In this document: piece after piece, positions 23,024 to 39,593 of the stretch | How the letters are laid out: every line of letters starts with the position of its first letter | Position numbering within the stretch: the stretch's first letter is position 1 | Notes under the pieces: model-generated | Told to the model about the DNA's origin: nothing | Seen by the model: only the letters and a program-made list of their open reading frames with translations | Database searches by the model: none | Assembly (NCBI GenBank): GCA_022360855.1 | Contig: JAKSBY010000477.1 | Coordinates: forward strand, 1-52,228 | Direction: 5' to 3' | Length of the DNA: 52,228 bases | Source: Sphingomonadales bacterium | Lineage (GTDB): Bacteria > Pseudomonadota > Alphaproteobacteria > Sphingomonadales > JAKSBY01 | Translations under genes and position numbers: made by a program

Positions 23024-23053
23024 GGGTATCCGCTCCTGTTTTCCTGTGCGGCT

Positions 23054-24385: not shown

Positions 24386-25059
24386 CAATAGGCTCCCGCG
24401 TTATCGAAGCTGAAATTATAGAGCTGCCGTGCGGAGCCATAGAAGCGGAAGGCGTCTGCCGTTTCATCGACGTTCGCTTCACGCAGCAGCTGCTCAAGCG
24501 TTTCCGATGTGCTCTGCGTCATCGGTTTTTCCTCACAGTCGGCGCCAAGGCTCCTGACTGTGCCGCGCACGAAAATGTTCACCTCATAAAGGCTGTCGCC
24601 AAGCGCTTCTCCCGCATCGCCAAGCACGATCAAATTGCCGGCCTGCCCCATAAACGCCGCCATCGACCCCACGGAGCCTTTTACCAGAATATCCGCGCCC
24701 TTCATGGAAATGCCGCAGCGCGCCGAGGCGTTGCCGTCAATGATCAGGAGGCCACCATGGGCCGTCGCGCCTGCCGACTGGCTTGCATCGCCCTTCACAT
24801 GCACCCGGCCAGACATCATGTTCTCCGCCACGCCGACACCTGCTGATCCTTCGATGGTCACATGCGCCTGCTGGTTCATGCCCGCGCAATAATAACCCAC
24901 CGGACCGGCAATGATCACATTGAGCGGCTGCGTCAAACCAGCAGCGAGCGCGTGCTGGCCGGCTGGATTCAGAACCATGATCTGATTGTCGCTCCCATGC
25001 CAGGTTTGCAGCGTTTGATTGAGCGTGCGGCGACTGATGTCTTTGAGATCGATATCCAT
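24385..25059 (-). CDS. mgsB: N-methylglutamate synthase subunit B (GXGXG glutamate-synthase C-terminal-domain protein)
   Basis: 224 aa from ATG 25059 (MDIDLKDIS..), with an ATGA overlap onto the mgsA stop. It carries repeated GxGxG beta-helix turns (GSAGVGVAENM, GDASQSAGATAHGG, GNASARCGISMKG, GSVGSMAAFMGQAG). Confidence 0.85.
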   Translation of the reverse strand: MDIDLKDISRRTLNQTLQTWHGSDNQIMVLNPAGQHALAAGLTQPLNVIIAGPVGYYCAGMNQQAHVTIEGSAGVGVAENMMSGRVHVKGDASQSAGATAHGGLLIIDGNASARCGISMKGADILVKGSVGSMAAFMGQAGNLIVLGDAGEALGDSLYEVNIFVRGTVRSLGADCEEKPMTQSTSETLEQLLREANVDETADAFRFYGSARQLYNFSFDNAGAY

Positions 25060-25965: not shown

Positions 25966-25987
25966 ACCAAAACATTCGAACTTTTTG
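25966..25987. promoter_or_regulatory. 22-bp near-palindrome CCAAAACATTC|GAACTTTTTGG (motif 1, site a) in the mgsA / XRE-cupin divergent spacer
   Basis: 9 of 11 positions per arm are self-complementary around the TTCGAA centre. The centre lies about 49 nt upstream of the mgsA ATG (25928). The 16-mer 25972-25987 is identical to 41689-41704. Confidence 0.45.
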
Positions 25988-26097: not shown

Positions 26098-26718
26098 ATG
26101 ATGAGCGGAAAATCAGACGTCGCCGCGGACGCGAAACGCGGATCATCAGATCACAGCCTGGAAAGCGCGATCGGCATTACCGTGCGCCAGCTTCGTCAGC
26201 AACTCAATCTAACGGTTGGCAAGCTAGCGAGCCAAGCGGGCGTGTCCGTGGCCATGCTGTCAAAGGTGGAAAATGGCCAGATCAGCCCGTCTCTGTCCAC
26301 TCTCGACAAACTGGCCGAAGGGCTCAACGTCCCCATCAGCCGTCTGTTCAGCGAACTTGACGAACGGCGCGACCGATCTTTCGTCGCGGCTGGAGAAGGA
26401 GTTGTCATCGACCGGCGCGGCACCAAGATGGGGCACGAATACCGGCTTTTGGGCGCGACCCTGGCTGGAGAGATCGCCGTTGAGCCCTATCTGATCACCC
26501 TTGATGAGGATGCAACGCCAGACACGACCTTCCGGCATGACGGCGTGGAGTTTTTGTTCATGCTGTCGGGCCAGATTGACTACCGGCACGGTGATGCCGT
26601 CTACACTCTTGCGCCGGGCGATGCGTTTTTGTTCGATTCCGCCGCATCGCATGGGCCTGAACGCATGGATGAGCTGCCGGCCACCTATTTATCGATTATT
26701 GTTCATTCCCGCCGCTGA
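26098..26718 (+). CDS. XRE-family HTH regulator with cupin domain (probable regulator of the methylamine operon)
   Basis: I chose ATG 26098 (MMSGKSDVAAD..); the ORF-track frame opens at 25930. 206 aa. HTH_3 region IGITVRQLRQQLNLTVGKLASQAGVSVAMLSKVENGQISPSLSTLDKLAEGL. Cupin region HDGVEFLFMLSGQIDYRHGD..AFLFDSAASHGP. Confidence 0.8.
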   Translation: MMSGKSDVAADAKRGSSDHSLESAIGITVRQLRQQLNLTVGKLASQAGVSVAMLSKVENGQISPSLSTLDKLAEGLNVPISRLFSELDERRDRSFVAAGEGVVIDRRGTKMGHEYRLLGATLAGEIAVEPYLITLDEDATPDTTFRHDGVEFLFMLSGQIDYRHGDAVYTLAPGDAFLFDSAASHGPERMDELPATYLSIIVHSRR

Positions 26719-27835
26719 AACGCGGGCGATGGCCGCTAGCGGCTTCCCGATAGGGCGGCAGGCTTAAATTAGGCATTGCGGGTTCCCCAGCAAATTTTAT
26801 CGGCACACCGAGATGGGTTTGCTTGTCGCTGTCATGAAGAAGCATGGAGCGCACTTTTACATGGGGATGCTCAAAAGCCTCCTTCAGCGTGAGCACGGGC
26901 GCCCAGCAGATATCAAGGTTGCCGAGAAACGCCATCCAATGATCCAAAGGTTTGGCGGCAAAGCTATTCTTGAAAAACGCACGCAGCGGCGCTTGCTCCG
27001 GCCCCGGCTCTATGGTTGCGTAGGAATAAAGGTCGGGCCGCTCAAGCGCGTCCAGCAGGACTCTCGCAAATTTCGGTTCTGAACCGCCCAAGACGATGAA
27101 TTTTCCGTCTGATGTTTCATAGATGTTGTACATCCCCGCCCCGCCAAAGGAGCGCATGGTTTTGGGCTCTGGCGCTCTGTCTTCGGCGAACACAGGTCCG
27201 GTGACATTCGCGGTCCATGAGAGCAGGCAATCATGCATGGAGATGTCCAGCACATCCCCCTGCCCCGTGCTCCGGCGGCGGTAAAGCGCCATTAAAATGC
27301 CGGAAAACGCCATCAGCGAAGCGCACATGTCGGCGGCTGGGATGTTCGGCATTGCCGGCTTGTCATCCTCCAGCCCCCGATTGAGATCCGTGGTGCCAGC
27401 CAGCGCCTGTACGGCAAGGTCATGGGCGGGCCTGTCTCTGAGCGGACCGTCCTGACCGAAAGCGGAAATAGAGCAATAGACCAAGCCAGGGTTTTCCGCG
27501 CGCAAAGCCGCTGGGCCAATGCCAAGGCGCTCAACAACGCCAGGGCGGAAAGCCTCAACGACAACGTCCGCCTCCCTGGCCAAAGAACGGAAATAGGCCA
27601 GGTCGCCCGCCTCTTTCAGGTTCAGCGCTACGGCCTCCTTTCCGCGCCCGATATTGCGAAACCAGACGGAAACACCGTCATCGGCCCGGTAGCCGATATC
27701 GCGCGCTGGTTCCCCCCGCCCGTTGGCGACTTCGATCATGATGACGTCCGCGCCGTGATCTGCCATCATCATGCTCATATGCGGACCGGGCAAAAAGCTG
27801 CTCAAATCCAGCACTTTAAGTCCTGCCAGTTTCAT
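26696..27835 (-). CDS. Family III CoA-transferase (CaiB/BaiF type)
   Basis: 379 aa with the N-terminus MKLAGLKVLDLSSFLPGPHMSMMMADHGADVIMIE typical of the family. ATGA overlap with the acyl-CoA dehydrogenase stop. Its 3' end overlaps the convergent regulator gene by 23 nt. Confidence 0.9.
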   Translation of the reverse strand: MKLAGLKVLDLSSFLPGPHMSMMMADHGADVIMIEVANGRGEPARDIGYRADDGVSVWFRNIGRGKEAVALNLKEAGDLAYFRSLAREADVVVEAFRPGVVERLGIGPAALRAENPGLVYCSISAFGQDGPLRDRPAHDLAVQALAGTTDLNRGLEDDKPAMPNIPAADMCASLMAFSGILMALYRRRSTGQGDVLDISMHDCLLSWTANVTGPVFAEDRAPEPKTMRSFGGAGMYNIYETSDGKFIVLGGSEPKFARVLLDALERPDLYSYATIEPGPEQAPLRAFFKNSFAAKPLDHWMAFLGNLDICWAPVLTLKEAFEHPHVKVRSMLLHDSDKQTHLGVPIKFAGEPAMPNLSLPPYREAASGHRPRFSGGNEQ

Positions 27836-29031
27836 GCCTCCGACCTGGCAATCAATTGCTTGGCAATGATGATGCGCTGCATCTCATTGGTTCCTTCCCC
27901 GATGCACATGAGCGGTGCTTCGCGGTAGAGGCGCTCGATGGGGTATTCCTTCGAATAGCCGTAACCGCCATGGATTCGCATCGCCTCCAAAGCGTTTTCG
28001 ACCGCTGTCTCAGAGGCAAAGTATTTGGCCATGCCCGCCTCCATATCGCAGCGCTCGCCAGCATCATAGGCGCGAGCGGCATCCTCCGTCAGCAGTTCCG
28101 CCGCGCGGGTGTGCGCCGCCATTTCGCCCAGCTTGAGCTGAATGGCCTGATGATTCGCGATGGGCTTGCCGAAGGTTTTTCGTTCTTTCGCATAAGCCAC
28201 GCTCTCGTTGAGCGCGCGCCGTGCGATCCCGACAGAGCGCGCGGCGATGTTGATGCGGCCGAGCTCCAGCCCGCCCACGGCCATGTAAAAGCCCTCGCCT
28301 TCCTCACCGCCGATCAGGTGCCGTCTGGCATCAATGCGGTAATTGTCGAACATCAACTCAGCGGAATCGATGCCCTTATAGCCCAGCTTCTGCATTTTAC
28401 CGCTGGTGGTATAGCCGTCATAGGCCTTCCCCGTGTCTGGATCGACCTTCGGCGTGAGCAGGATGGACATGCCCGCGCGCGGCGGTTTTGCCTCAGGATC
28501 GGTTTTCACAAGCAGCGCCACAGCCCCACCTTCGATCCCGTTGGATATCCATGTCTTGTTGCCGTTCACCACATAATCATCACCGTCGCGCAGCGCCACA
28601 GTGCGGATCGCCTGCAGATCGGTCCCTGCATCGGGCTCGGTGAGCCCCAAAGCCCCGCGGATCTCCCCAGCAGCAAATCTCGGCAACCAATACTCTTTTT
28701 GGAAATCCGTACCGAACTTCTCAACGATCGTCGCCATCATCAGGTGGGAGTTGAAGATACCGGTCAGCGACATCCAGACCTCCGAAATCTGGGTCACGAT
28801 CCGGGCGTAGGTGGTCGCCGACAGGCCAAGCCCCCCATAGTCTGGCGAAATCGTCGCGCCGAACAGGCCGAAGTCCTTCATCTGTTCGACCATCTCATGG
28901 GGATACTCATCGGCATGCTCCATGCGCATCACATGGTCTTTCACATCCCGGTCCAGCCACCGGCCGATCTGATCGAGCATGGCGCGTTCGTCAGATTCGG
29001 AAATGCCGCGTTCGTCAGATGCCGTTGCCAT
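27832..29031 (-). CDS. Acyl-CoA dehydrogenase
   Basis: 399 aa from ATG 29031, preceded by AAGGAAA. The ORF-track start at 29073 would overlap the MaoC gene. Motifs GLTEPDAGTD and the C-terminal catalytic-base region IGEGTNEMQRIIIA. Confidence 0.9.
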   Translation of the reverse strand: MATASDERGISESDERAMLDQIGRWLDRDVKDHVMRMEHADEYPHEMVEQMKDFGLFGATISPDYGGLGLSATTYARIVTQISEVWMSLTGIFNSHLMMATIVEKFGTDFQKEYWLPRFAAGEIRGALGLTEPDAGTDLQAIRTVALRDGDDYVVNGNKTWISNGIEGGAVALLVKTDPEAKPPRAGMSILLTPKVDPDTGKAYDGYTTSGKMQKLGYKGIDSAELMFDNYRIDARRHLIGGEEGEGFYMAVGGLELGRINIAARSVGIARRALNESVAYAKERKTFGKPIANHQAIQLKLGEMAAHTRAAELLTEDAARAYDAGERCDMEAGMAKYFASETAVENALEAMRIHGGYGYSKEYPIERLYREAPLMCIGEGTNEMQRIIIAKQLIARSEA

Positions 29032-29047
29032 GGCAGATTTCCTTTTG

Positions 29048-29569
29048 TCAGTAGCGTGGATTTTTATCTTCAACTGCTTGTCCCTTTGCAGGGATCAGCA
29101 TATTCCGGTCAAACGTGCAGACCTGCTCATCGCGCTGATTGGTGCCGATTGTGCGGATTGTCACGATGCCCTGGCCGGGGCGGGACTTGGATTCGCGCTT
29201 GGCGAGAACCTCACTTTGGGCATAGAGCGTATCTCCCGCATAAACGGGCGCGGTGAACTTGATACCGTCCATCCCCAGGTTCGCGATGGCTTTCTGGCTG
29301 ACATCTGTGACCGACATGCCGATCAGAAGAGCTAGGGTATAGGTCGAGACGACCAGATTGCCGTCAAACTCCGACGTTTTGGCAAACTCTGCGTCAAAAT
29401 GCATGGGATGGGTGTTGAGAGTAACCAGCGTGAAGAGGTGATTGTCATACTCCGTCACCGTCTTTCCCGGGCGGTGATCATAGGTGTCGCCCACGGCGAA
29501 GTCCTCGAAATAGCGCCCGAAGGTCTCACGGTAATGATTGTCCCCGATTTCTTTCCAGCCCTGTACCAA
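29048..29569 (-). CDS. MaoC-like (hot-dog fold) enoyl-CoA hydratase/dehydratase
   Basis: 173 aa. TTG start 12 nt after GAAAGGA. Sequence ..GRYFEDFAVGDTYDHRPGKTVTEYDNHLFTLVTLNTHPMHFDAEFA.. matches single-hot-dog MaoC dehydratases. Confidence 0.85.
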   Translation of the reverse strand: MVQGWKEIGDNHYRETFGRYFEDFAVGDTYDHRPGKTVTEYDNHLFTLVTLNTHPMHFDAEFAKTSEFDGNLVVSTYTLALLIGMSVTDVSQKAIANLGMDGIKFTAPVYAGDTLYAQSEVLAKRESKSRPGQGIVTIRTIGTNQRDEQVCTFDRNMLIPAKGQAVEDKNPRY

Positions 29570-29573
29570 AGTT

Positions 29574-30407
29574 TTATGTCCTTTCGTGCGCCAGCAGGCG
29601 CTCAGCCGCCAAAATCACTGGTTTTTCAATGAGTTTGCCATTCAGCAATGCGGCGCTGCCCTTGGCGTCTTCAAGCGCCGCAATGACGCGCCGGGCATGA
29701 TCCAGCTCTGCATGTGTGTGGGCAAGGGCGTCATGAATGCCGGCAATCTGCTTGGGGTGAATAGCCGCGCGCGCGGCCAGGCCAAGCGCCTTTGCCCGAC
29801 GCGTTTCCTCTATCAGCCCCGCGCTGTCTTCCACATCCAGATAGGGCACATCGAACACCGGCACACCCGCGCTCGCCGCTGCGACGGCAAGCTGGCTGCG
29901 GGCAAAAAACAAACCGTCCCACTCCAGGCTGCAACCAACATCGGCGCTATAATCGACGCCGCCGAAGAGAACCGCCCCGCAGCGAAGGTGATTGAGAATA
30001 TCTGCCGCTGCGAGCAGACCTGCACCGCTTTCAATGACGGGAATGAGAGGCTTCGGCGCGCCCAGCCAGCCGGCGACAAGCTCAATGTCATGGCTGCTGA
30101 CAACCTTTGGCAGCATGAGAAAATCGGCCCGATCGAGATCTAAAGCCAACGTACTGATATCCTTGCATCCATCCAGGGACGTCACGGCGTTGATGCGCAC
30201 GCCGACCGCGGGCCCAGCCCCTCTAGAGTGCGCTAGACACTCCGCCACAGCCTCACGGGCAGCGGCTTTTTGGTCAGGCGCAACCGCGTCTTCGAGATCA
30301 ATGCATATGCTGTCGGCGCCTGCCGCGCGGGCCTTGTCAAACCGATCAGGCCGGTTGCCAGGCACGAACAGCAGTGAGCGCCAGGCACTCATGGGCAAGT
30401 CAGTCAT
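29574..30407 (-). CDS. HpcH/HpaI aldolase / citrate lyase beta (CitE)-like acyl-CoA lyase
   Basis: 277 aa with RSLLFVPGNRPDRFDKA..ADSICIDLEDAV, the CitE / malyl- or citramalyl-CoA lyase family signature. Confidence 0.85.
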   Translation of the reverse strand: MTDLPMSAWRSLLFVPGNRPDRFDKARAAGADSICIDLEDAVAPDQKAAAREAVAECLAHSRGAGPAVGVRINAVTSLDGCKDISTLALDLDRADFLMLPKVVSSHDIELVAGWLGAPKPLIPVIESGAGLLAAADILNHLRCGAVLFGGVDYSADVGCSLEWDGLFFARSQLAVAAASAGVPVFDVPYLDVEDSAGLIEETRRAKALGLAARAAIHPKQIAGIHDALAHTHAELDHARRVIAALEDAKGSAALLNGKLIEKPVILAAERLLAHERT

Positions 30408-30465
30408 AACAATTGCTTTTTAAGACCGTATCCGTTCTGCCCTGCATTGAAAGCGCGGAGGGGCT

Positions 30466-31098
30466 TTAGGCGGCTTTGCGTTGCAGTTTGGAAAAATAAT
30501 CAAGGGTCTCGGCAAGGGTAACCACATCCGCATAGCGTCGGCTGACATCGCGCAAATTGGCCTCATGCGCATCCATTTCCATGTCGCCGACGCATTCCTC
30601 GGGGATCATGGTTCTAAACCCGTAAGAAAAACTGTCATTGGTCGTTGCGCGCACGCAGCCAGACGTGGTGCAGCCGGTCACGAAGACGGTATCGACATTC
30701 TGCTTGGTCAGGAAGGTGATCAGCGGTGTATCGAAGAACATCGACGGCGCGCCCTTCGTAAAAGCGAAGTCGTAATCCTTATCGTGTATTTTCGGTTCCA
30801 GCTCCGTCGAGGGATCGCCATAGAACATGCCTTCATAAAGCATGGGGACTTTCCAATAGCTCATATCCTTCTTGCTGCCCCAAGCGACATTGCACACAGC
30901 AACGGGAATGCCAAGCGCGCGCGCTTCTTTCAGCAGCGTGGCGGTGTTGTCGACCGCTTTATGGATATAGGGCGAAATACCGGCGGGATAATCCGGGCGG
31001 GTGAAGCCGACCTGAAAGTCCACGACCAGGATCGCCGGGCGTTCGCCAAAGCCGATGCCGGCCTGGCCATAGCCAATCTCGTCAAAACGGTTACTCAT
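30466..31098 (-). CDS. Isochorismatase-fold cysteine amidohydrolase (N-carbamoylsarcosine amidase / maleamate amidohydrolase-like)
   Basis: 210 aa. The Asp-Lys-Cys triad context is visible: PAILVVDFQ (Asp), FAFTKGAPS (Lys), VTGCTTSGCVRAT (Cys). The Cys marks the amidohydrolase branch rather than true isochorismatases. Confidence 0.85.
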   Translation of the reverse strand: MSNRFDEIGYGQAGIGFGERPAILVVDFQVGFTRPDYPAGISPYIHKAVDNTATLLKEARALGIPVAVCNVAWGSKKDMSYWKVPMLYEGMFYGDPSTELEPKIHDKDYDFAFTKGAPSMFFDTPLITFLTKQNVDTVFVTGCTTSGCVRATTNDSFSYGFRTMIPEECVGDMEMDAHEANLRDVSRRYADVVTLAETLDYFSKLQRKAA

Positions 31099-31112
31099 AT
31101 CCTCGTCTCCTC

Positions 31113-32216
31113 TTAAGGCAGATAAAATGTCTGGTAGTCGGTCTCACAAGGCGGCCCAAACGCCACATCCACACGCCCGGCTGCGGGGTCCGCAACCAGG
31201 GAAGCCACCGTCATCCATTGATCGGCATCGTAGCGCGACGTCTCAGCGCGATGGCGGCAAATGCTGCTGGGGTGGTTTTGATGGTCTTTCAAAACTGATT
31301 TCACTTGCTCAAACAGATCGCCCTCTCCGACATCAATCTCCTCCAGACGCGCTGCCCCCTGGGCGCGCCGCACGGTGGAATCCGGAAGGATATCCAAAAG
31401 GCGCTCATCCCCGCGAAATCGCTCGCAAACATAATGGTTGGTGTGAAACAGCCTGCCGTCTTCGGCGGTTAACGTCTCAACCTCGTCCACGGTTTGCTCA
31501 AGATTGCGGATATCGCCTGAGGGGTCGGTGAAAAGCAGGTTGATGGTCGAGGCACGCTCCAGCCCCCGGATAGTTTCTTCAGCTTTTGCCGCGGTCTTCT
31601 GTTCCAGAGCCAACCGGCAACTCAAATAACGCGGGAAGCCTACGCGCCAGCCATCCGACAGAAGCGCGTTGCCGAACACGCTCAGGCCCTCGCTGTTGAT
31701 GCCCAAATATCCGATCATGCCCGGATAATAGGCGTAAAACAGCATATCCGGGCCATAGTCCGGCCGCATCTCCACAACCGTGCCCAGACGGCAATGCTCC
31801 TCAACCGTATCGACATTCTGGCCAGTGAAGACATGCCCGTCAGCCCGTTTAATCGCGAAAGACGAGCAGCCATCCCCGCCGCGCCCATCAAAGCCCACAG
31901 CTTCAAAACGCAGCTGGAGCAGGAGCGCGTCTTCAAATGGAACAGCAGCACCGCGAGCCAGCCCACGGATTTCCTCAACCAGGTAAGGCGCCACCTTTTC
32001 AATGGCCGAAACATAGGCTTGCGCCCGCGCGCGAAAGTGTGTGATGGGACCGATTTTCTCCATCTCGCCATGGACCAGTGCCAGCGCCTCGGCGATGCTC
32101 GGCCGGCACGCCTCGCCCAGTTGTTCGCCCATTTGGCGATTGCTGCCGGAGACGCAGACGCGGCGTGTTTCACCGACACCAAACGAGTGTTGATCATCTT
32201 GCAGCAAGGTCACCAT
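31113..32216 (-). CDS. Peptidase C45 family Ntn-hydrolase (acyl-CoA:6-aminopenicillanate acyltransferase-like)
   Basis: 367 aa. There is a putative autoprocessing and nucleophile site ..GRGGDG|CSSFAIK... Downstream are YYPGMIGYLGINSEGLSVFGN and TNHY motifs typical of C45 members. AAGGAAGGGA precedes ATG 32216. Confidence 0.75.
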   Translation of the reverse strand: MVTLLQDDQHSFGVGETRRVCVSGSNRQMGEQLGEACRPSIAEALALVHGEMEKIGPITHFRARAQAYVSAIEKVAPYLVEEIRGLARGAAVPFEDALLLQLRFEAVGFDGRGGDGCSSFAIKRADGHVFTGQNVDTVEEHCRLGTVVEMRPDYGPDMLFYAYYPGMIGYLGINSEGLSVFGNALLSDGWRVGFPRYLSCRLALEQKTAAKAEETIRGLERASTINLLFTDPSGDIRNLEQTVDEVETLTAEDGRLFHTNHYVCERFRGDERLLDILPDSTVRRAQGAARLEEIDVGEGDLFEQVKSVLKDHQNHPSSICRHRAETSRYDADQWMTVASLVADPAAGRVDVAFGPPCETDYQTFYLP

Positions 32217-32265
32217 TTTTCCCTTCCTTTGGACGAAACCCAGTTGGGCGCGCCTTCCTCCTCAC

Positions 32266-34587
32266 TTAGAAATTATAGGTGAGCTCCGCGCCGAACGTGC
32301 GCTCCAGCCCCCGGCGCGCAAAGTTCAGCAGGAACTGTGGTGGCGTATCCGGGCCAGGCGTTGCAGCGTAGGAAATGATGTTCTCAGCATTGTATTTTTC
32401 GTTGAAGAGGTTTCGCGCCCACACGGTGAGGGACCAGTTTTCAGAGCGCACGCCGCCGCGCAGGTTCACTAAATTGACCGGATCGCGCACAGTGCGCGGG
32501 CCGCCATTGATGTCCCAAGGCGTTTCGCCAAGGCGCTGATAGTCAATTCGGCTGAACCAATCGAACGCATTGGAAATCGGAAGGTTGACCTCCGCACCCA
32601 GATTCAGCGTTGTTTTAGGCACGGACGGCAGATCATTTCCGACCGCAAAGGGATTGGCGTCATATTGAGTGACCGTCGCGTCGGTGAATCCAAAGGCAGC
32701 CGACAAGACGACATACTCGTGCGCCTGCAGCGTGGCATCAAATTCAAAGCCTTTGATTTCGGTGCCATCGATATTGGTTCTGGCCCGGGTCGATGTCACG
32801 GGCGTAAACTCGAAAATCTGAGTGTTGCTGGTATCCGTCAGGAACGCTGATACGTTGAAGGTCAGCCGGTCATCAAGCCACCGTGTTTTCATACCGATTT
32901 CCCAGCCTTTGACGACCTCCTCATCATAGGTGTCAAAGATATTGACGCTGCCGGGATCGAGCGTGGGAAAGTCAAACGCCAAGACAGTAGCGCGCGTGCC
33001 CGGACCGTTAAACCCGCCGGCGCGGAAACCCTCGCCATAGCTGGCAAAGACGCTGATATTCTCCTTCGGTAGCCAGCGCAGAGACACGCGCGGCTGAAAG
33101 CGGTCAAAGCTTGCTTCGCGCACGAGGCCTTCAAATCCAGCGAGGGTGGGGAGCCCAGCAAAGTCGGAGCTAAGAAAGTTCGTCGCGTTACGATCTTCCG
33201 AATCCCAGCGGCCGGAAACAGCAAGCTCAAGATTTGGAAGGATATCGTAAAACAGCTGCCCGTAGAGGGAGAACACATCTGTCTGGGTTCCCTGATCCTC
33301 CGTCACATTGAGCGTCAAAGGCCCAGGATTTACAGAAGAAATCTGTCCACCGTTTTCGTCTCGTTGAAGCGACACGAAAACGGTGCGTTCAATGTTTGCG
33401 TAATAGCCACCAAAACTCCAATTCAGGCGACTATCAAAGGCGTCGCCAGACAGACGTGTTTCCAGCGTGCGTGTTTTGCCGTTGCGTTCCTGAAACGCGA
33501 TGGTCCCTTCGGCAGGCGTATAACCAATCAGATTGAAGTCGTTGTTTGCGTTGCCATCCGGTCCCACACCCTCAAACCCAAACGCGGAGTTGATGATGAA
33601 GTCGGCGCCAAAGGCGTTGTCGTTATCATTGTAGCCCGCAGCGAAAAACCAATCGGCAAAGCCCATATCCCATTCGATCTTGCCGCTGAGATCAATGCGT
33701 TCAGCCGGGTTGATGGAGTTTACGTTCGGCGCGAAGGGAAGGCTTGTATCGTTGACATTCGGCCCGTCAGCGAATTGCGGGGTAATGTTTGGGAAGAATG
33801 CCGTTTGGAAATTAAAGTAGATCGCGCTGCCGTCAATGTCTGCATATTCGGCAATGAGGTCCACCGACAGGTCCTCCGTCGGCGTGAACAAAACCCGGCC
33901 CCGCACGCGCAGTTCTTCATAGTAATCGACGGTATTGCCGAGAAACTCATTTTCAAAAATACCGCCCCTGTCGGTATAGGAGGCTGATATGCTCGCTCCC
34001 AACGTATCTTCAATGACGGGGCCGGACAAATAGCCGGTGAAACGGTAGTGATCGCCGTTTCCAATTTCCGCCGTCACCCTGCCTTCAAGCTCTTCACCCG
34101 GCTTTTTCGTGGTAATGAGGATGGCACCCCCGACCGCATTACGCCCGTAAAGGCTGCTGACCGGTCCTTTGACCACCTCAATTTGCTGAATTGCCACCAG
34201 ATCTCGATTGAGGGCGAAGGCATCAGGCTGCTGAACGCCGTCGATCACCAGCGCATAGGATGGGTCCACATCCCTGGAATTGAGAATGCCACGGATGATG
34301 ACCTGCGTATCGCCCGCTTCCGCGGTATCAAGCATGAGAACATTGGGCACCAGTTGGGCAAAATCGGTCGGCCGCTGAATGCCAGCGCGCTGAATTGCCT
34401 GCTCGCTAAACGCATCCACGGTGATCGGCGTTTCCACCAGGGTTTCCGGCGTCCGGCGGGCCGTAATAAAGATTTGCTCGACCGCATCATCCACTTGGTC
34501 ACCTTGGGCAAGCGCGCTTGACGTCCCCGTGGCCGCGATCATTGCCGCGAGGCTGAGCCCACCCGCTATTTCCTGCTTAAAAGCCAT
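32266..34587 (-). CDS. TonB-dependent outer-membrane receptor (locus 2)
   Basis: 773 aa. Signal peptide ..TSSALA/QG, TonB-box-like EQIFITARR, and plug motif IEVVKGPVSSLYGRNAVGGAI. The barrel ends ..AELTYNF. GGGAGG precedes ATG 34587. Confidence 0.9.
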   Translation of the reverse strand: MAFKQEIAGGLSLAAMIAATGTSSALAQGDQVDDAVEQIFITARRTPETLVETPITVDAFSEQAIQRAGIQRPTDFAQLVPNVLMLDTAEAGDTQVIIRGILNSRDVDPSYALVIDGVQQPDAFALNRDLVAIQQIEVVKGPVSSLYGRNAVGGAILITTKKPGEELEGRVTAEIGNGDHYRFTGYLSGPVIEDTLGASISASYTDRGGIFENEFLGNTVDYYEELRVRGRVLFTPTEDLSVDLIAEYADIDGSAIYFNFQTAFFPNITPQFADGPNVNDTSLPFAPNVNSINPAERIDLSGKIEWDMGFADWFFAAGYNDNDNAFGADFIINSAFGFEGVGPDGNANNDFNLIGYTPAEGTIAFQERNGKTRTLETRLSGDAFDSRLNWSFGGYYANIERTVFVSLQRDENGGQISSVNPGPLTLNVTEDQGTQTDVFSLYGQLFYDILPNLELAVSGRWDSEDRNATNFLSSDFAGLPTLAGFEGLVREASFDRFQPRVSLRWLPKENISVFASYGEGFRAGGFNGPGTRATVLAFDFPTLDPGSVNIFDTYDEEVVKGWEIGMKTRWLDDRLTFNVSAFLTDTSNTQIFEFTPVTSTRARTNIDGTEIKGFEFDATLQAHEYVVLSAAFGFTDATVTQYDANPFAVGNDLPSVPKTTLNLGAEVNLPISNAFDWFSRIDYQRLGETPWDINGGPRTVRDPVNLVNLRGGVRSENWSLTVWARNLFNEKYNAENIISYAATPGPDTPPQFLLNFARRGLERTFGAELTYNF

Positions 34588-34680
34588 AATTCTACCTCCC
34601 TGTAAGGTCCTGTATATGCTTGGTATTCCTGCGCACAGTCCCAGAACGGTACCGCGAGTGCGCCGATCCTGTGTTGCGCC

Positions 34681-36597
34681 TCAGCTGGCCTTTAGAGCCA
34701 GATCGTCTTGTCTCGACAGGCCCATGCCAGCGGCCGCGCTGTCTTTTGCAAACGTGGGGGCGACCGGCGCGGGAAGCCCCGTTTCGGCCTTGCAGCGCTC
34801 ACGCAGTTCCTCAAGCGTGCCGCCTTTGTCGAACAACTGCGCCTCGCCCGCGTTCTGGCACATCTCCCCGCGCAGCCGCGCGGTCGCCAGTTCATCGATG
34901 GCCAACTCATCACTGCAGACCACGCCATACCGGCGCGCGCCATGCGGCGTGACGAGCCCGCTCTCAAGATCATAGACAACGGCCGCAAGATCGCGCTCCA
35001 AAGGATCGCCCCACCCGCCGCCGCCCCAGGTCTCGAACAGCACGAAATCACCGGCCTCGACCAGGATGTTATCGCATTTGGCCGGCACCAGTTCCTCGCT
35101 GCCATCAGCCCTTATCACCGTCTTGCGGCTGCGTTGGCCGGGATGGCCGCCTTTCACGCCCCATGGATAGGTCAGCCAGCGATCATCATGGATGGAAACC
35201 CGGCCAGGCCGCAAAAACCGGTAACCAACCCGCATAGCGTTGCCGCCGCGGTGCTTGCCGGGGCCGCCGCTGTCGGCAATCGTTTCGCTGATCTCGATGC
35301 GTACGGGGAAATAGCTTTCCACAAACTCATTCGGAATGTTGATGAATTTGGGCCAGAGGGAATGTCCGTCCGGACCGTCCCCGCTTGGCTTGCCGGGAAT
35401 CCCGCCGAAACCGATCTGGAAGAACAAGAACCATTTGTCCCGGTCGTCGATGCCGGAGAACATGAAGTGCGGGCTGGAGGAGAAGCCGGCAGCGCACAGA
35501 TAGTCGGGATTGGCGCTGCCGAACAGCCCACTGATGATGTCAAAGATACGGCCCATGGCGTGGGTCCTGCCGTTCAAAGCCGCCGGCCGGAGCGGCGCCA
35601 GCAGGCTTCCCTCGGGAATACGCACCTCCATCAGGTCAAAAAAGCCGTCGTTGAGCAGGATATCGGGGTCAAACATCATGACCATGAACTGCCCGCAGAA
35701 CATCTTGAACATCTGATCCGACAGCAGGAAATTTATGCAGCCCAGAGACTGTGAATCGGTCCGGCCGAAGTCGAAAATCATCGTCTCGCCTTCGCGCCAC
35801 ATGTCGCAGGCGATCTTATAGGGCCCCATGCCTTGACCATCATCGCAGACATAGTCTTCGAAGCTGACCTCCTTCTCCGGAACAGTGGTCAGAATCAGCT
35901 GACGCATGGAGCGCTTGTTGCGCTCCAGCAGTTCATCGAGCGCTGAGACGTAGGTGTTCACGCCGTAGCGTTCCGCCATCTCCAGGCAGCGGTTGGCACC
36001 GGCCTTGCACGCAGCCACAATGGCGTTGAAATCACTCTCATTCCACTGCGGCACGCGGCAGTTATGCAGGATGATATTGAGCACATCTTTCTGCAGCTTG
36101 CCCTTCGCGTAGATTTTTACCGGCGGAATGCAGATGCCTTCTTCATACAGGTCCACGGAATCGACCGGCATCGAGCCCGGAATCTTGCCGCCGATGTCCG
36201 TCATGTGACCAAACATGGCCGACCAGTTCATCAGCCGGCCGTCCTTGAAGACGGGCATCAAAACCAGCCAGTCATTGACGTGACTGATCGAGCCGTTACA
36301 GGCATAGGGGTCGGACGTGAGGAGGATATCGCCTTCTTCGATGCCGCCTTCATAGAGGTCCATAAAGCCTTTGACGGGTGAGCCGAACTGACCGGCGACC
36401 AGCCGGCCGTAGCGATCAGTGATGACGGGAAACCCATCGCGCTGCTCGCGAATGATCGGGCTCATGGCGGTGCGAAAAAGCAGCGCATCCATCTGGCCAC
36501 GCGCGCTCACCAGACCGTTTTCAATTAGTTCCAGCGTGATGGGGTCGACCCCTACGGTTTCATAAGGGGCCGTGTTGGTTTCTATCAAAGTCGCCAT
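34681..36597 (-). CDS. Hydantoinase B / oxoprolinase family protein (HyuB-like), pair 2
   Basis: 638 aa, with VDPITLELIENGLVSARGQMDALLFRTAMSPIIRE.. and family sequence throughout. It is about 70 aa longer than the pair-1 HyuB. It lies 12 nt downstream of hyuA-like pair 2. Confidence 0.9.
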   Translation of the reverse strand: MATLIETNTAPYETVGVDPITLELIENGLVSARGQMDALLFRTAMSPIIREQRDGFPVITDRYGRLVAGQFGSPVKGFMDLYEGGIEEGDILLTSDPYACNGSISHVNDWLVLMPVFKDGRLMNWSAMFGHMTDIGGKIPGSMPVDSVDLYEEGICIPPVKIYAKGKLQKDVLNIILHNCRVPQWNESDFNAIVAACKAGANRCLEMAERYGVNTYVSALDELLERNKRSMRQLILTTVPEKEVSFEDYVCDDGQGMGPYKIACDMWREGETMIFDFGRTDSQSLGCINFLLSDQMFKMFCGQFMVMMFDPDILLNDGFFDLMEVRIPEGSLLAPLRPAALNGRTHAMGRIFDIISGLFGSANPDYLCAAGFSSSPHFMFSGIDDRDKWFLFFQIGFGGIPGKPSGDGPDGHSLWPKFINIPNEFVESYFPVRIEISETIADSGGPGKHRGGNAMRVGYRFLRPGRVSIHDDRWLTYPWGVKGGHPGQRSRKTVIRADGSEELVPAKCDNILVEAGDFVLFETWGGGGWGDPLERDLAAVVYDLESGLVTPHGARRYGVVCSDELAIDELATARLRGEMCQNAGEAQLFDKGGTLEELRERCKAETGLPAPVAPTFAKDSAAAGMGLSRQDDLALKAS

Positions 36598-36609
36598 GAT
36601 CCGCGCCTC

Positions 36610-38667
36610 TTAGGAATCCATCGGACGGATGAGAATATTGCCGAACGCATCCACCTCGCCGACATGAGCGGGCAGGATCAGCGTTGTGGAGTCCATCTCT
36701 GTGATGATCGCCGGTCCGGTGATGGCATTGCCGGCCTTCAGCCTGGCCCTGTCATAAATGATCGCCGGCCAATCCTCGCCGTCGGCAAAGATCGTGGTTT
36801 CAAGGGATTTCGCCGCGCTTGGATCAGCACCGCCTTCTTCGATCTTGCGCGCTTCGGCAATCGGCGCAGCACCCTGCGCGACTGCGCGCAAGTTGATAAA
36901 TTCGTGCTCCGCATCAAGAGAGAAGGTGTAGAGCTTTTCATGCTCGGCATCAAAATAGCCGCGAATGGGCTCCAGCCCGTTCGCGCGCAGGTCTTCCAGA
37001 TCCGCCGGCACGGTGATCTGCAGCGCTTGGCCATGATAGCGCACATCCAGTTCATAGAGGAGGCTCTGCTCCTCACGCGGCACACCGTCCTCATCCAGCG
37101 TCCCTCGCGCTTTGGCGCCAAGCTCCTCAAGCATATTGACGAGCTCTTCAGCAGAGACCTGCCCAAAGCGCCGGATGAAGGTTTGCGAGGCTTCATCACG
37201 CAGCCGCGTCGTCGCGTCCCCACTGGCGCACAGCACGCCCGGCCCGCGCGGAATGATCACCGGCCAGCAGCCCAGCAGCTTGCCAAGCGCATTGCCATGC
37301 AGAGGCCCGGCGCCGCCAAAGCCCATGAGGGCAAAACCGCGCGGGTCAAAGCCCTGCTCGACCGAGACCAGCCGCAGGGCGCCGAACATATTCTCATTCA
37401 CAATGTCGATAATGCCGGCCGCCGCTTCCTTCAGGCTCAAGCCGAGTGGCTCGGCGATGCTTTGAACCGCCGCCTCTGCTTTTGCCTTATCGATCGCCAT
37501 TTTGCCGCCAAGCTGCGCGCCGTACGGAAGATATCCGAGCACGACATTCGCGTCTGTCACCGTTGGCTGTGTTCCGCCTTTGCAATAGGCTGCTGGCCCA
37601 GGCACGGCGCCAGCGCTTTGCGGGCCCACACGCAGCGCTTTGGTCAACTCCGGCACATGGGCAATCGAGCCGCCGCCAGCGCCGACCGTGCTGATATCCA
37701 CGGACGAAGCACGCACGGTCACGTCGCCCACCGTCGTCTCCCGGCGCAGGCGGGCCTGGCCACCGGTGATGAGCGCGACGTCCGTGGACGTGCCCCCCAT
37801 ATCGAAGGTGATGATGTCTTCAAAACCGGCCTGGCTGGCCACCCACAAGGCACCCGCAACGCCGCCCGCGGGTCCGCTCATTAGCAGATTGACGGGATAT
37901 TGCGCCGCGGCCTCGGCAGAGGACAACCCGCCATCGGAGCGCAGAATATTCAGCGAGACACCGCCCATCCGTTCCGTTAGTTCACGGCTGAGATTGTTCA
38001 CATATTTCGACACCACCGGACGGACGAAGGAATTGGCCACGGTGGTCACCGCGCGCTCATATTCCTGCATTTCAGGTATAACGTTGGAGGAGATCGACAC
38101 CTCCACCCCCGGAAGCTCCTCTTCGACGATCACGCGGGCCTGTTCTTCATGAGCGCCATTGGCGAAGGAATTGATGAAGCAAATGGTCACCGCGTCAACG
38201 CCGGCTTGCTTGAAAACGCCGAGCTGTTCGCGCAGGGCCTGCGGGTCAAGCGGGGTAACGACCGACCCATCCGCGCCCATGCGCTCGTCCGTTTCGATCG
38301 TCCATTTCAGCGGCGCCATCGGCGCGCTTTTGTTATAGATCACCCAGCCGCCAAGCCCGCCTGGAATGAAGGAACGGGCGATGTGCAGGATTTGGCGATG
38401 CCCCTTGGTGGTGATAAGTCCGACTTTTGCGCCCTTGCCCGTCAACACGGCGTTTGTGGCGACGGTGGTGCCGTGCATCACATGGCTGATCTGGGCTGGG
38501 TCGATCTGGGCCTCACCACAAATGCGCGCAATGCCATTCAAGACGCCGATAGAGGAATCTTCCGGCGTTGAAGGGACTTTGGCGGCATAAACGCGTGAAC
38601 TTTCGATGTCGATCAAGGCAAGATCGGTAAACGTCCCGCCCACATCCACACCAAGCCGAAATGTCAT
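36610..38667 (-). CDS. Hydantoinase A / oxoprolinase family protein (HyuA-like), pair 2
   Basis: 685 aa with the N-terminus MTFRLGVDVGGTFTDL (DxGGTFTD loop). Confidence 0.9.
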   Translation of the reverse strand: MTFRLGVDVGGTFTDLALIDIESSRVYAAKVPSTPEDSSIGVLNGIARICGEAQIDPAQISHVMHGTTVATNAVLTGKGAKVGLITTKGHRQILHIARSFIPGGLGGWVIYNKSAPMAPLKWTIETDERMGADGSVVTPLDPQALREQLGVFKQAGVDAVTICFINSFANGAHEEQARVIVEEELPGVEVSISSNVIPEMQEYERAVTTVANSFVRPVVSKYVNNLSRELTERMGGVSLNILRSDGGLSSAEAAAQYPVNLLMSGPAGGVAGALWVASQAGFEDIITFDMGGTSTDVALITGGQARLRRETTVGDVTVRASSVDISTVGAGGGSIAHVPELTKALRVGPQSAGAVPGPAAYCKGGTQPTVTDANVVLGYLPYGAQLGGKMAIDKAKAEAAVQSIAEPLGLSLKEAAAGIIDIVNENMFGALRLVSVEQGFDPRGFALMGFGGAGPLHGNALGKLLGCWPVIIPRGPGVLCASGDATTRLRDEASQTFIRRFGQVSAEELVNMLEELGAKARGTLDEDGVPREEQSLLYELDVRYHGQALQITVPADLEDLRANGLEPIRGYFDAEHEKLYTFSLDAEHEFINLRAVAQGAAPIAEARKIEEGGADPSAAKSLETTIFADGEDWPAIIYDRARLKAGNAITGPAIITEMDSTTLILPAHVGEVDAFGNILIRPMDS

Positions 38668-38722
38668 CCCGAAACCTCCCGCAGTCTATTCTCTCAAGAT
38701 GAAACACTTTTTCCTCTGCGTC

Positions 38723-38740
38723 AATAGTTCGAACTTTTAT
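38723..38740. promoter_or_regulatory. Near-palindrome AATAGTTC|GAACTTTTAT (motif 1, site b) in the GntR / hyuA divergent spacer
   Basis: 7 of 8 positions per arm are complementary. The centre lies about 63 nt upstream of the hyuA-like ATG (38667) and about 120 nt upstream of the GntR ATG (38853). The core GTTCGAAC fits the generic GntR-family GT-Nx-AC operator shape. Confidence 0.5.
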
Positions 38741-38852
38741 TTTGCTTTTTTCCTTGATTTATCATCCCAAGCTGGCGGACATCTGACGATGCGCTTCTCT
38801 ATAGGGGTGAGGACGACGCCCACGCACCGCAGCACGACGGACATATGTTGGC

Positions 38853-39593
38853 ATGACAATTGATTCAAATCTGAGCCAGGCTTCGGAACCAGACAAGATT
38901 TATGCGCGGCTAAGGTCGGTTCTGGAAGGCGGCGCCTTTGAAATCGGCGACATGTTTCCCACCGAGACGGACCTGTGCGCGCAATATGATGTCAGCCGCT
39001 ATGCGCTACGCGAAGCCCTGAAAAAGCTTGAGCAGGAAGGGTACCTTTCGCGCAGGCGCGGCGCGGGCACCCATGTGCTCTCGACAAAGCCCAACACAGG
39101 TGTTTTTCATCACCGGGTTGGCTCCAGTGGCGACCTTGAACTGTTTGCCCGCGGCACCCGCATTCGCTTTGAAGGATGCGAGGTCATCGAGACAGACGCA
39201 ATGCTGGCCAGAGATTTAAGGTGCGATGAGCTGCGCCGGTGGTATAAGCTGGAGGGCATTCGATATGACGGCGACCGGCCCTTCGGCCTGACGACTCTCT
39301 ATCTGGACGCAAGCCGCATCTCCGCACCAAACCCGCGGCAATTCGACCATGAACCGGTCTATCGCTGGATGGAAGGTGCCGCCGATCTGAAAATCGCTGG
39401 CGTTTCGCAGGATATTTCAGCTGTCTTATTATCAGAACGCCAAGCGGAGATCTTTGGCGAAACAGCGGGCGCGCCTGCCCTGCAAATAGCGCGCCGCTAT
39501 TTCGATACCGGCAATCAGATTTTTGAAATCGCCATCACGGTCCATCGCAGCACGGACTTCGTGCACAATATGCGCATCAAGTTTGATACATGA
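38853..39593 (+). CDS. GntR family transcriptional regulator, HutC subfamily (wHTH + UTRA effector domain)
   Basis: 246 aa. Sequence FPTETDLCAQYDVSRYALREALKKLEQEGYLSRRRGAGTHV is the GntR wHTH. The C-terminal ~150 aa are UTRA-like. Confidence 0.9.
   Translation: MTIDSNLSQASEPDKIYARLRSVLEGGAFEIGDMFPTETDLCAQYDVSRYALREALKKLEQEGYLSRRRGAGTHVLSTKPNTGVFHHRVGSSGDLELFARGTRIRFEGCEVIETDAMLARDLRCDELRRWYKLEGIRYDGDRPFGLTTLYLDASRISAPNPRQFDHEPVYRWMEGAADLKIAGVSQDISAVLLSERQAEIFGETAGAPALQIARRYFDTGNQIFEIAITVHRSTDFVHNMRIKFDT

Follow-up and report, generated by a model that had tools for sequence, protein, structure and literature searches.

A stretch of 52,228 nucleotides from a Sphingomonadales bacterium (contig JAKSBY010000477.1, hereafter the window) carries a conserved gene cluster that most likely imports a cyclic amide, opens its ring with ATP, removes the nitrogen and burns the carbon through the methylsuccinate/itaconate CoA pathway. 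The cluster combines a HyuA/HyuB-type ATP-dependent hydrolase, an isochorismatase-fold Cys-amidohydrolase (Isoch) and a C45 Ntn-hydrolase with an acyl-CoA dehydrogenase (ACAD), a MaoC-type hydratase, a CitE-type lyase, two family III CoA-transferases (CoAT1 and CoAT2), a TonB-dependent receptor (TBDR), an alpha/beta-hydrolase-fold protein (ABH) and a GntR/UTRA regulator. An initial annotation of this DNA had described nine contiguous minus-strand genes and a divergent GntR/UTRA gene as an undescribed system for cyclic-amide catabolism. All nine open reading frames (ORFs) lie where it placed them and their families are confirmed by Pfam and NCBIfam; the regulator gene likewise agrees in position and family. 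The gaps across the nine genes are 12, 93, 49, 14, 58, 4, 16 and -4 nt, the ACAD being read from the ATG at 29031 chosen by the initial annotation rather than from the alternative TTG at 29073. Promoter and terminator scans gave signals not above shuffled background and are uninformative on operon structure.

The extent of nine genes was only partly right: they are indeed co-conserved, but the genes at 39609-40793 (CoAT2) and 40849-41652 (ABH), omitted earlier, belong with them, and the functional unit, as judged from its conservation, is larger than had been claimed and comprises eleven structural genes and one regulator. Scans of genome and metagenome contigs with C45 gave one and three loci, respectively, and most of the genomic context described here comes from exact-protein look-ups. 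In Eilatimonas milleporae (L001) the order is ABH-CoAT2-<GntR>-HyuA-HyuB-TBDR-C45-Isoch, at 59-84% identity. A 1.7-Mb metagenome contig (L005) has all eleven genes, at 41-69% identity, in the rearranged order GntR<>TBDR-C45-HyuA-HyuB-Isoch-CitE-MaoC-ACAD-CoAT-CoAT-ABH. The cultured gammaproteobacterium Pseudohaliea rubra (L019) has CoAT-CoAT-Amidase-GntR/UTRA<>HyuA-HyuB-Isoch-ABH-CitE-MaoC-ACAD, at 39-65% identity, with an amidase-signature enzyme beside the regulator in place of C45. Three gene orders, spread over Alpha- and Gammaproteobacteria, thus preserve the gene set; chance juxtaposition, of which the initial annotation had named missing synteny as the sign, is therefore not the case. 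A shorter version, DUF819-GntR<>TBDR-C45-HyuA-HyuB(-Isoch), is found in L006, L008 and L012, DUF819 being a member of the CPA/AT transporter superfamily (PMC8396727).

The downstream half of the cluster matches a pathway whose enzymes have recently been characterised by Gonner et al. 2025 (PMC12290011). In that pathway the cluster-type ACAD is a (RS)-methylsuccinyl-C4-CoA dehydrogenase (Mcd = PA0879), the MmgE/PrpD protein (Msi) is a (S)-(R)-methylsuccinate isomerase, the CoA-transferase Ict prefers (R)-methylsuccinate, Ich hydrates mesaconyl-C4-CoA, and Ccl forms pyruvate and acetyl-CoA (PMC12290011). The ACAD of the window shares 60-67% identity with ACADs encoded on Aminobacter, Azospirillum and Pseudosulfitobacter plasmids, and 63-65% with those of L005 and L019. 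The Azospirillum and Pseudosulfitobacter plasmids show the layout CoA ester lyase-MaoC-MmgE/PrpD-ACAD-CoA transferase-GntR beside dicarboxylate transporters; the Aminobacter cluster (L020) shares the CoA genes and is missing the MmgE/PrpD gene. MaoC has 53-56% identity in L020-L022 and 59-61% in L005 and L019; CitE, whose best PDB chain is 3qll, has 36-43% identity to the 'CoA ester lyase' of L021 and L022 and 41% in both L005 and L019. For CoAT2 the values are 64% (L001), 52% (L005) and 58% (L019), and 46-50% to the transferase beside the ACAD in L020 and L021. By these comparisons CoAT2, ACAD, MaoC and CitE are orthologues of Ict, Mcd, Ich and Ccl, an orthology judged through the L020-L022 genes, which have the published cluster layout. 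The best NCBIfam matches of MaoC and CitE are the RipB/Ich and RipC/Ccl models, whose equivalog cutoffs are not reached (221/340 and 216/375 bits); the models take their names from the Rip proteins of Yersinia, whose cluster type has been described as convergent with that of Pseudomonas aeruginosa (PMC12290011).

The role of CoA activation had been assigned to the gene at 26696-27835 (CoAT1), but the best Ict-type match is CoAT2, outside the interval first considered. CoAT1 is only 25% identical to CoAT2 and has its relatives elsewhere, namely in L005 (54%, copy b), L019 (47%) and the transferase of the Aminobacter cluster (49%), where this lineage also accompanies a Mcd-like ACAD. Since the window locus, L005 and L019 all lack a gene for the MmgE/PrpD isomerase, we infer that the second transferase may stand in for it by taking the other enantiomer or regioisomer. 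A dicarboxylate product, as initially suggested, fits the logic of these genes; because the CoA genes are orthologous to those of the methylsuccinate/itaconate pathway, the range of 'C4-C6' can be narrowed to a methyl-branched C5 dicarboxylate.

The upstream half begins with the HyuA/HyuB pair. The HyuA domains Hydant_A_N, Hydantoinase_A and Hydant_A_C score 161, 291 and 46 bits and Hydantoinase_B of HyuB scores 487 bits; all three A domains are in one subunit and the B domain is in the adjoining gene, after a 12-nt gap. The nearest NCBIfam model of HyuA is that of the caprolactamase alpha subunit CapA (547 bits, cutoff 1000); CapB reaches 204 of 1000 and the Apc subunits score lower, so that none of the characterised equivalogs is reached and substrate specificity is not transferable. 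Its nearest PDB chains are the N-methylhydantoinase 7hk5 (452 bits) and 6yra (400 bits), the latter deposited as 5-oxoprolinase and which we take to be the caprolactamase of P. jessenii. HyuA is thus, as far as these scores go, about equally close to N-methylhydantoinase, the 6yra chain and the CapA model. Among the sister loci, HyuA identity is 60-79% in L001, L005, L006, L008, L012 and L019, and HyuB identity is 64-84% throughout. The HyuB orthogroup (at least 64% identity) amounts to thousands of proteins, mainly from marine Gammaproteobacteria.

In the isochorismatase-fold protein, the Asp-Lys-Cys triad that had been noticed in the sequence is borne out: D27, K115 and C148 are in register with conserved residues of 26st, 4l07, 3ot4 and 1nba, and C148 aligns with the Ala position of the otherwise identical 4L08 sequence; we take these three residues to be the catalytic triad. 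The best PDB scores are 118 bits for the N-carbamoylsarcosine amidase (CSHase) 26st, 106 for 4l07, 97 for 3ot4/3uao and 93 for 1nba, where 4l07 is presumably Ami and 3ot4/3uao the maleamate amidohydrolase NicF. CSHase and the maleamate amidases are equidistant and no NCBIfam equivalog applies. Identity is 61-81% in L001, L005, L006 and L019, and relatives of this type (type A) number in the hundreds.

The two halves also recur together outside the eleven-gene cluster. A compact module of GntR, a HMG-CoA-lyase-like gene, HyuA, HyuB, a family III CoA-transferase and an isochorismatase, with or without a TonB receptor, is found in several loci, namely the marine contigs L010 and L011 and plasmids of Novosphingobium capsulatum (L017) and Acidiphilium multivorum (L018); the module is widespread, no function has been ascribed to it, and the PGAP name for its amidase is 'N-carbamoylsarcosine amidohydrolase'. 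On L013 an isochorismatase, a CoA-transferase, a thiolase/DUF35 pair and HyuA stand together. In all-against-all comparison HyuAB alone is closely shared across loci (55-71%), the amidases and transferases falling into separate lineages. HyuAB and one Cys-amidase are therefore recurrently paired with a CoA-transferase and a C-C lyase of three enzyme families. This provides the strongest case for the ring itself being the source of the CoA-cleavable acid: conversion of a cyclic imide or equivalent ring to a half-amide and then to a dicarboxylate would account for the pairing.

Table. Features of the cluster and its regulatory elements, with window coordinates and the evidence for each assignment.
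Feature	Coordinates	Strand	Evidence or remark
HyuA-type subunit, ATP-dependent lactamase/hydantoinase	36610..38667	-	PF05378/PF01968/PF19278; N-terminal ASKHA-type motif DVGGTFTD
HyuB-type subunit	34681..36597	-	PF02538, 487 bits
TonB-dependent outer-membrane receptor, accessory uptake component	32266..34587	-	Plug and barrel domains; signal peptide by inspection
C45 Ntn (Cys) amide hydrolase/acyltransferase, predicted cytoplasmic and self-processing	31113..32216	-	NF040521, 211 bits (cutoff 85)
Isochorismatase-fold Cys amidohydrolase, N-carbamoylsarcosine-amidase/maleamate-amidase clade	30466..31098	-	D27, K115, C148
CitE-type acyl-CoA lyase, (S)-citramalyl-CoA-lyase-like (Ccl/RipC-like)	29574..30407	-	NF038242 RipC_Ccl, 216 bits (cutoff 375)
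MaoC hot-dog hydratase, itaconyl/mesaconyl-C4-CoA-hydratase-like (Ich/RipB-like)	29048..29569	-	NF038241 RipB_Ich, 221 bits (cutoff 340); PF19315
Acyl-CoA dehydrogenase, probable methylsuccinyl-C4-CoA dehydrogenase (Mcd-like)	27832..29031	-	Identity to cluster ACADs
Family III CoA-transferase, lineage T1 (CoAT1)	26696..27835	-	PF02515
Family III CoA-transferase, lineage T2 (CoAT2), Ict-type	39609..40793	-	PF02515, 356 bits
Alpha/beta-hydrolase-fold protein (ABH)	40849..41652, from likely start	-	Pfam Abhydrolase
GntR/UTRA (HutC-subfamily) regulator, divergent	38853..39593	+	PF00392, 64 bits; PF07702, 72 bits
Operator-like TTCGAACTTT, overlapping palindrome AGTTCGAACT	38728..38737	.	61 nt upstream of hyuA
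TTCGAACTTT copy	40839..40848	.	46 nt upstream of CoAT2; L001 equivalent 1025-1034
TTCGAACTTT copy	41692..41701	.	40 nt upstream of ABH; L001 equivalent 103-112
TTCGAACTTT copy	25975..25984	.	47 nt upstream of mgsA-like first gene, tentative regulon member
Methylamine/N-methylglutamate-type operon	15926..25928	-	Pfam; shares TTCGAACTTT

The units of the locus are further joined by a shared cis-element. The palindrome initially noticed in the spacer between hyuA and the regulator gene is present as AGTTCGAACT at 38726-38735, and the 10-mer TTCGAACTTT that overlaps it occurs in four exact copies in the window, against 0.05 expected and a maximum of one in 100 shuffles; each copy stands 40-61 nt before a start codon, and the copies preceding CoAT2 and ABH recur exactly, at corresponding positions, in Eilatimonas. 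The spacer at hyuA contains variants with a TTCGAA core in both Eilatimonas and P. rubra, and such sites occur only where the GntR is of the UTRA type, loci with a non-UTRA GntR being without the element. The regulator falls below the HutC equivalog cutoff (84 vs 220 bits) and has orthologues in L001 (59%) and L019 (39%), likewise in divergent position. The shared TTCGAACTTT supports the view that the three units of the locus form one regulon, on whose sites the GntR/UTRA protein may act as repressor. The fourth copy precedes an operon whose connection with the locus the initial annotation, otherwise partly supported in its overall interpretation, had missed. This adjoining operon is complete and contains GATase (mgsA-like), GXGXG (mgsB-like), glutamate-synthase FMN-domain (mgsC-like) and glutamine-synthetase-like (gmaS-type) genes, sarcosine-oxidase beta/delta/alpha/gamma-like (N-methylglutamate-dehydrogenase-like) genes and a purU-like gene. 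A XRE and cupin regulator gene (26098-26718, plus strand) is divergent from it and overlaps the 3' end of CoAT1 with its own 3' end by 23 nt. On L009 (7926-14168), too, a mgs/sox-type module flanks the upstream genes: HyuA-HyuB-isochorismatase-amidase lie between soxBDAG with a serine dehydratase gene and mgsABC/gmaS-type genes. Tentatively, the regulon seems to reach the methylamine/N-methylglutamate operon in this organism, and the shared TTCGAACTTT is our main ground for thinking that the substrate may be N-methylated, or that methylamine or an N-methyl amino acid may be formed.

Two of the genes highlighted by the initial annotation, the TonB receptor and C45, are present as described; they occur in a small subset of the loci and are, on comparative grounds, accessory rather than core and probably the most dispensable parts of the unit, because 39 relatives of C45 were found whereas HyuB orthologues run to thousands and isochorismatase orthologues to hundreds, and because C45 is replaced in P. 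rubra. The receptor has orthologues of 48-72% identity in L001, L005, L006, L008 and L012, and is absent from the P. rubra locus. It reaches no cutoff among the siderophore and heme subfamilies (TIGR01783, 146/223.5 bits; TIGR01785, 113/317 bits); an identity as siderophore receptor was accordingly rejected and the protein appears to be a generic TonB-dependent receptor only.

The C45 gene product matches PF03417 with 64 bits (>23). Its DG|C site, pointed out earlier, is confirmed by alignment of G116-C117 with G102|C103 of isopenicillin-N acyltransferase (2x1d), and both residues are invariant in 19 homologues; autoproteolysis at G116|C117 and amide hydrolase or acyltransferase activity are thus predicted. 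Inspection of the sequence revealed no signal peptide. The 39 relatives found, and an identity to isopenicillin-N acyltransferase of about 25% by eye, suggest a distinct, rare bacterial subfamily in catabolic contexts. Plasmid matches to C45 (at most 31% identity) were set aside as a different subfamily, and a plasmid match to the isochorismatase (48% identity) lies in an unrelated context. A second C45 context, without HyuAB, was observed in L002, L003, L004, L007 and L014 (about 6-17 kb each; C45 identity 52-54%), with genes for an amidase, a luciferase-like monooxygenase, C45, a M19 dipeptidase, a HpcH/CitE-like lyase, TauD, a CoA-transferase, an acyl-CoA ligase, a peptide deformylase, an arginase and a polysaccharide deacetylase. 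This arrangement has the look of a further amide-rich catabolic cluster, also undescribed.

Somewhat puzzling is the ABH protein, whose presumed elbow reads G-M-V-G-M-G-A-C, with no Ser, Asp or Cys at the nucleophile position. The pattern G-[ML]-V-G-[MI]-G-A-C is kept in four orthologues, which retain the C-terminal Asp and His motifs, and a G-x-Ser/Asp/Cys-x-G nucleophile elbow was not found in the proteins of the window, L001 or L019. Orthologues are present in L001 (68%, 159-965), inside the operon in L019 (56%, 10677-11483) and, in part, in L005; the nearest named relatives of the L019 protein are RutD and PcaD, both weak, with RutD as best NCBIfam match (66 bits). ABH may be a non-hydrolytic (decarboxylase- or lyase-like) member of its fold.

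From gene content, catalytic motifs, orthology and co-localisation, the cluster is best explained as a regulon, switched on by induction, that would break down a ring compound containing nitrogen and built on the carbon skeleton of a methyl-branched C4-dicarboxylate. At about an even chance of being right, we propose that the compound is taken up through the receptor, that HyuAB opens a methyl-branched five-membered imide or lactam, that two amidases take the nitrogen from the product, and that the resulting methylsuccinate-type acid is converted into pyruvate and acetyl-CoA. The compound or its conjugate would cross the outer membrane through the TonB-dependent receptor; the locus itself encodes no inner-membrane step, and sister loci have the DUF819 carrier. 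In the cytoplasm, HyuA/HyuB would drive hydrolysis of a stable ring amide with ATP. The likeliest ring would be a cyclic imide of the methylsuccinimide or methylmaleimide type, possibly N-methylated, a lactam or hydantoin being less likely. The isochorismatase-fold Cys-amidase would then hydrolyse a half-amide or carbamoyl group with release of ammonia, and C45 would cut a second amide, a role taken in P. rubra by the amidase-signature enzyme; if N-methyl-substituted, this second amide may deliver methylamine to the adjoining N-methylglutamate pathway. ABH, lacking a nucleophile, may contribute some auxiliary step. CoAT2 would convert the free diacid (methylsuccinate, itaconate or mesaconate type) to its C4-CoA ester, CoAT1 perhaps handling the other enantiomer or regioisomer; the Mcd-like ACAD would form mesaconyl-C4-CoA, the Ich-like MaoC would hydrate it to (S)-citramalyl-CoA, and the Ccl-like CitE would cleave the latter into pyruvate and acetyl-CoA. 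The order put forward initially (ATP-dependent ring opening, Cys-amidase, dicarboxylate, then CoA activation, desaturation, hydration and cleavage) agrees with all the comparative data.

Several observations weigh against this proposal. The NCBIfam equivalog cutoff is reached by none of the enzymes of the locus, so that all specificities are inferred. Hydrolysis of cyclic imides normally needs no ATP, and an imide is not an obvious HyuAB substrate; on the other side, 2,3-disubstituted maleamic acids are prone to ring closure, and this could be a reason for coupling the reaction to ATP. The nearest solved relatives, N-methylhydantoinase for HyuA and carbamoylsarcosine amidase for the isochorismatase, favour a hydantoin. 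The CoA module is absent within 10 kb in L001 (CitE, MaoC, ACAD and CoAT1) and in L006, and the coupling of the two halves is thus not obligatory. Displacement of C45 by an amidase is seen in one genome, and the amidases of different loci are 29-39% alike, which led us to reject the notion that the amidase-signature enzymes form one orthogroup across loci. The methylamine link consists of adjacency in two loci and one short motif and is tentative, and the roles given to C45, CoAT1 and ABH are guesses.

The rival that survives best, though we consider it unlikely, places two independent pathways on one island: a creatinine-type HyuAB and isochorismatase branch, in which N-methylhydantoin would be converted to N-carbamoylsarcosine and then to sarcosine, to be oxidised by the adjoining sox/mgd-like enzymes, and a stand-alone itaconate/methylsuccinate CoA cluster. 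It draws on the N-methylhydantoinase and N-carbamoylsarcosine amidase as best solved relatives, on the sarcosine-oxidase-like genes and purU downstream, on the position of the HyuAB and isochorismatase genes of L009 between sox and mgs genes, on the TTCGAACTTT copy before the mgs/sox operon, and on the CoA module, which stands alone elsewhere and is missing from L001 and L006. However, creatinine deaminase or creatininase is not present among the annotated ORFs of the window, HyuA is equally close to caprolactamase, and the sox-linked isochorismatase of L009 is nearer to 3ot4/3uao, presumably NicF, than to CSHase (241 vs 150 bits). Even sox-linked isochorismatase copies thus look like half-amide amidases rather than carbamoylsarcosine amidases, and the automated 'creatinine pathway' annotation of L009-like loci may be wrong. 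Moreover, formation of sarcosine does not explain why HyuAB and isochorismatase are repeatedly in one operon with a CoA-transferase and lyases of three families.

A substrate consisting of a methylsuccinyl- or itaconyl-type acyl group amide-linked to an amino-lactam or hydantoin head group is also rather improbable. Here C45 or the amidase-signature enzyme would split the conjugate, the CoA module would take the acid, and HyuAB and isochorismatase would reduce the ring to an amino acid; C45 might possibly pass the acyl group straight to CoA, as isopenicillin-N acyltransferase in reverse. The relatives of C45 are indeed amide acyl-transferases and hydrolases, C45 stands beside a CoA-transferase and a CitE-like lyase in its second context, a TonB receptor suits a larger molecule, and three hydrolases with a hydrolase-fold protein suggest several scissile bonds. 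Yet loci without a third amidase still join HyuAB and isochorismatase to a CoA-transferase and lyase, which implies the ring itself as the source of the acid, and the locus has neither an aminotransferase nor a deaminase that could handle an amino-acid product.

Juxtaposition by chance or on a genomic island, with no shared substrate, is very unlikely. In its favour, the window is pieced together from several catabolic clusters, its terminator and promoter signals are no stronger than shuffled sequence would give, and the CoA module is missing from some sister loci. Against it, the eleven-gene set is kept in three gene orders and two classes, the cis-element precedes three separate units of the locus, and neighbours among the nine genes overlap or stand close together. 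Salvage of a (citrate/succinate-type) xenosiderophore or a peptidic natural product with lactam or imide rings, which the TonB receptor (weakly similar to siderophore and heme subfamilies), the several amide hydrolases and the kinship of CitE with citryl-CoA lyase might recall, can hardly be credited, since the receptor is below every siderophore/heme cutoff (146 vs 223 bits) and dispensable in P. rubra, no Fur box, reductase, ABC importer or peptidase gene accompanies it, and the CoA enzymes are specifically Mcd-, Ich- and Ccl-like.

The ring-opening proposal can be carried further, to the doubtful idea that the locus and the much larger family of modules of HyuAB, isochorismatase, CoA-transferase and lyase represent a widespread unrecognised route that mineralises beta-methyl five-membered cyclic imides and lactams and is a source of methylsuccinate-type acids and methylamine, ATP being spent to open rings that would otherwise re-close. 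Oxidative breakdown of chlorophyll and heme yields methyl-, methyl-ethyl- and methyl-vinyl-maleimides, hematinic acid and 'BOX' monopyrroles, which hold a lactam and a primary amide (PMC7318184); such monopyrroles, as well as N-methyl imides, are candidates for the natural substrate. Other compounds were considered and rejected. Homarine came into view through the N-methylglutamate link, but the hom operon, the nearest recent marine N-methyl pathway, uses unrelated enzymes. Biotin, anserine- or methylhistidine-derived methylhydantoin-propionate, andrimid-type acyl-methylsuccinimides, N-methyl-pyridone carboxamides and pyoverdine side chains each account for only part of the gene set. LeuCD of L010, as a dedicated citraconate hydratase, was down-weighted because it passes the leuC equivalog cutoff and may be housekeeping. 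No riboswitch or tRNA clue to the ligand was found.

If the proposal is true, the cluster supplies the upstream half so far lacking from a pathway of which the part from methylsuccinate to pyruvate and acetyl-CoA was characterised only in 2025, and points to a further natural source of methylsuccinate, the origin of which had been called unclear until recently (PMC12290011). It would also define a new substrate class for ATP-dependent HyuAB hydrolases, with thousands of close homologues that in marine metagenomes are annotated wholesale as 'N-methylhydantoinase' or '5-oxoprolinase', provide a first catabolic role for a bacterial C45 Ntn-hydrolase subfamily, and link the breakdown of carbon, by an operator in common, to the nitrogen metabolism of methylamine and N-methylglutamate. 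In practice, it would caution against taking HyuAB with isochorismatase in marine genomes for 'creatinine degradation'.

Elsewhere in the window, a second, separate HyuAB catabolic cluster occupies 1071-15286 on the minus strand, with genes for a GST, two SDRs, an enoyl-CoA hydratase, HyuB (4000-5712), HyuA (5709-7898), a FrsA/S9-type esterase, a MFS transporter, a TonB receptor (10522-12603), another SDR and a BKACE beta-keto-acid cleavage enzyme (13514-14992), and a divergent XRE and cupin regulator at about 14573-15286. At the other border of the locus, a short ORF (41779-42390) ends right after its FAD/NAD-binding Rossmann motif and another (42528-43088) has a weak C-terminal FGE-sulfatase match only; both look like gene remnants. 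They are followed by a RND efflux system (43105-49074: AcrB-like 43105-46260, membrane-fusion protein 46553-48124, outer-membrane factor 47803-49074), in which G+C rises from about 0.55 to 0.67; this stretch may have been acquired separately. Among the sister loci, L013 (4751-11759) has its C45 gene among IS elements, with RpiR-isochorismatase-CoA-transferase-thiolase-DUF35-HyuA nearby and a dihydropyrimidinase-like amidohydrolase slightly below the D-hydantoinase cutoff (387 vs 393 bits). A gene of the Asp/Glu/hydantoin-racemase superfamily at the edge of the P. rubra locus (371-1120) has no NCBIfam match and no homologue in the window; the superfamily includes hydantoin racemases and maleate isomerases.

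Compared with known systems, every enzyme family of the cluster is known and its downstream half is a characterised pathway. The novelty initially claimed therefore holds for the upstream half, which matches no described pathway, and not for the four CoA genes, orthologues of methylsuccinate/itaconate pathway genes. In the literature searched, no described pathway was found for the whole gene combination, nor any description of the combination itself, of the chemistry upstream, of the C45 subfamily in catabolism or of the operator shared with the methylamine operon. Among the closest systems is the Ict-Mcd-Msi-Ich-Ccl cluster of P. aeruginosa and Cupriavidus necator (PMC12290011), with which the locus has in common the CoA-transferase, ACAD, MaoC, CitE-type lyase and GntR (identities of 46-50% for CoAT2, 60-67% for ACAD, 53-56% for MaoC and 36-43% for CitE). 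It differs by the absence of the MmgE/PrpD isomerase and of a dicarboxylate TRAP/TTT transporter, and by the addition of a second, unrelated CoA-transferase and of the ring-opening and amidase genes.

The creatinine route, outlined in part in PMC8864220, comprises an ATP-dependent N-methylhydantoinase, N-carbamoylsarcosine amidase and sarcosine oxidase. The locus and the genes adjoining it include relatives of each, at family level only, and in both systems a HyuA/HyuB-type hydrolase is paired with an isochorismatase-fold Cys amidase, with sox-like genes adjoining here. In contrast, the locus is without creatinine deaminase, its similarity is only moderate (452 and 118 bits), and nothing in the creatinine route corresponds to its link with CoA-transferase and lyase genes. 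The maleamate branch of nicotinate/nicotine degradation (NicD deformylase; NicF/Ami) likewise joins an alpha/beta-hydrolase-fold protein to a Cys-triad half-amide amidase. There, however, the half-amide arises from dioxygenase ring cleavage and the product goes to maleate isomerase, whereas in the locus the half-amide would arise from ATP-dependent hydrolysis, the product would enter a CoA pathway, and the hydrolase-fold protein is without nucleophile.

Degradation of N-methylpyrrolidone releases methylamine, as the route proposed here may do. The routes for caprolactam (CapAB), valerolactam/5-oxoproline and N-methylpyrrolidone (nmp) have a HyuAB-type ATP lactamase as first committed step (PMC8453981, PMC6061476). 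They then proceed via an omega-amino acid, handled by a transaminase or oxidase; the locus has neither of these enzymes but two or three amidases, together with a CoA route for dicarboxylates. The Rut pyrimidine pathway is similar in placing an isochorismatase-fold amidase (RutB) beside an alpha/beta-hydrolase-fold helper (RutD), but the locus is without the RutA monooxygenase, its scores are far under the cutoffs and its carbon skeleton is another one. Finally, the Gly|Cys self-processing of isopenicillin-N acyltransferase, which exposes an N-terminal Cys nucleophile, is predicted also for the C45 protein of the locus, which at about 25% identity would represent a rare bacterial subfamily turned to catabolic contexts.

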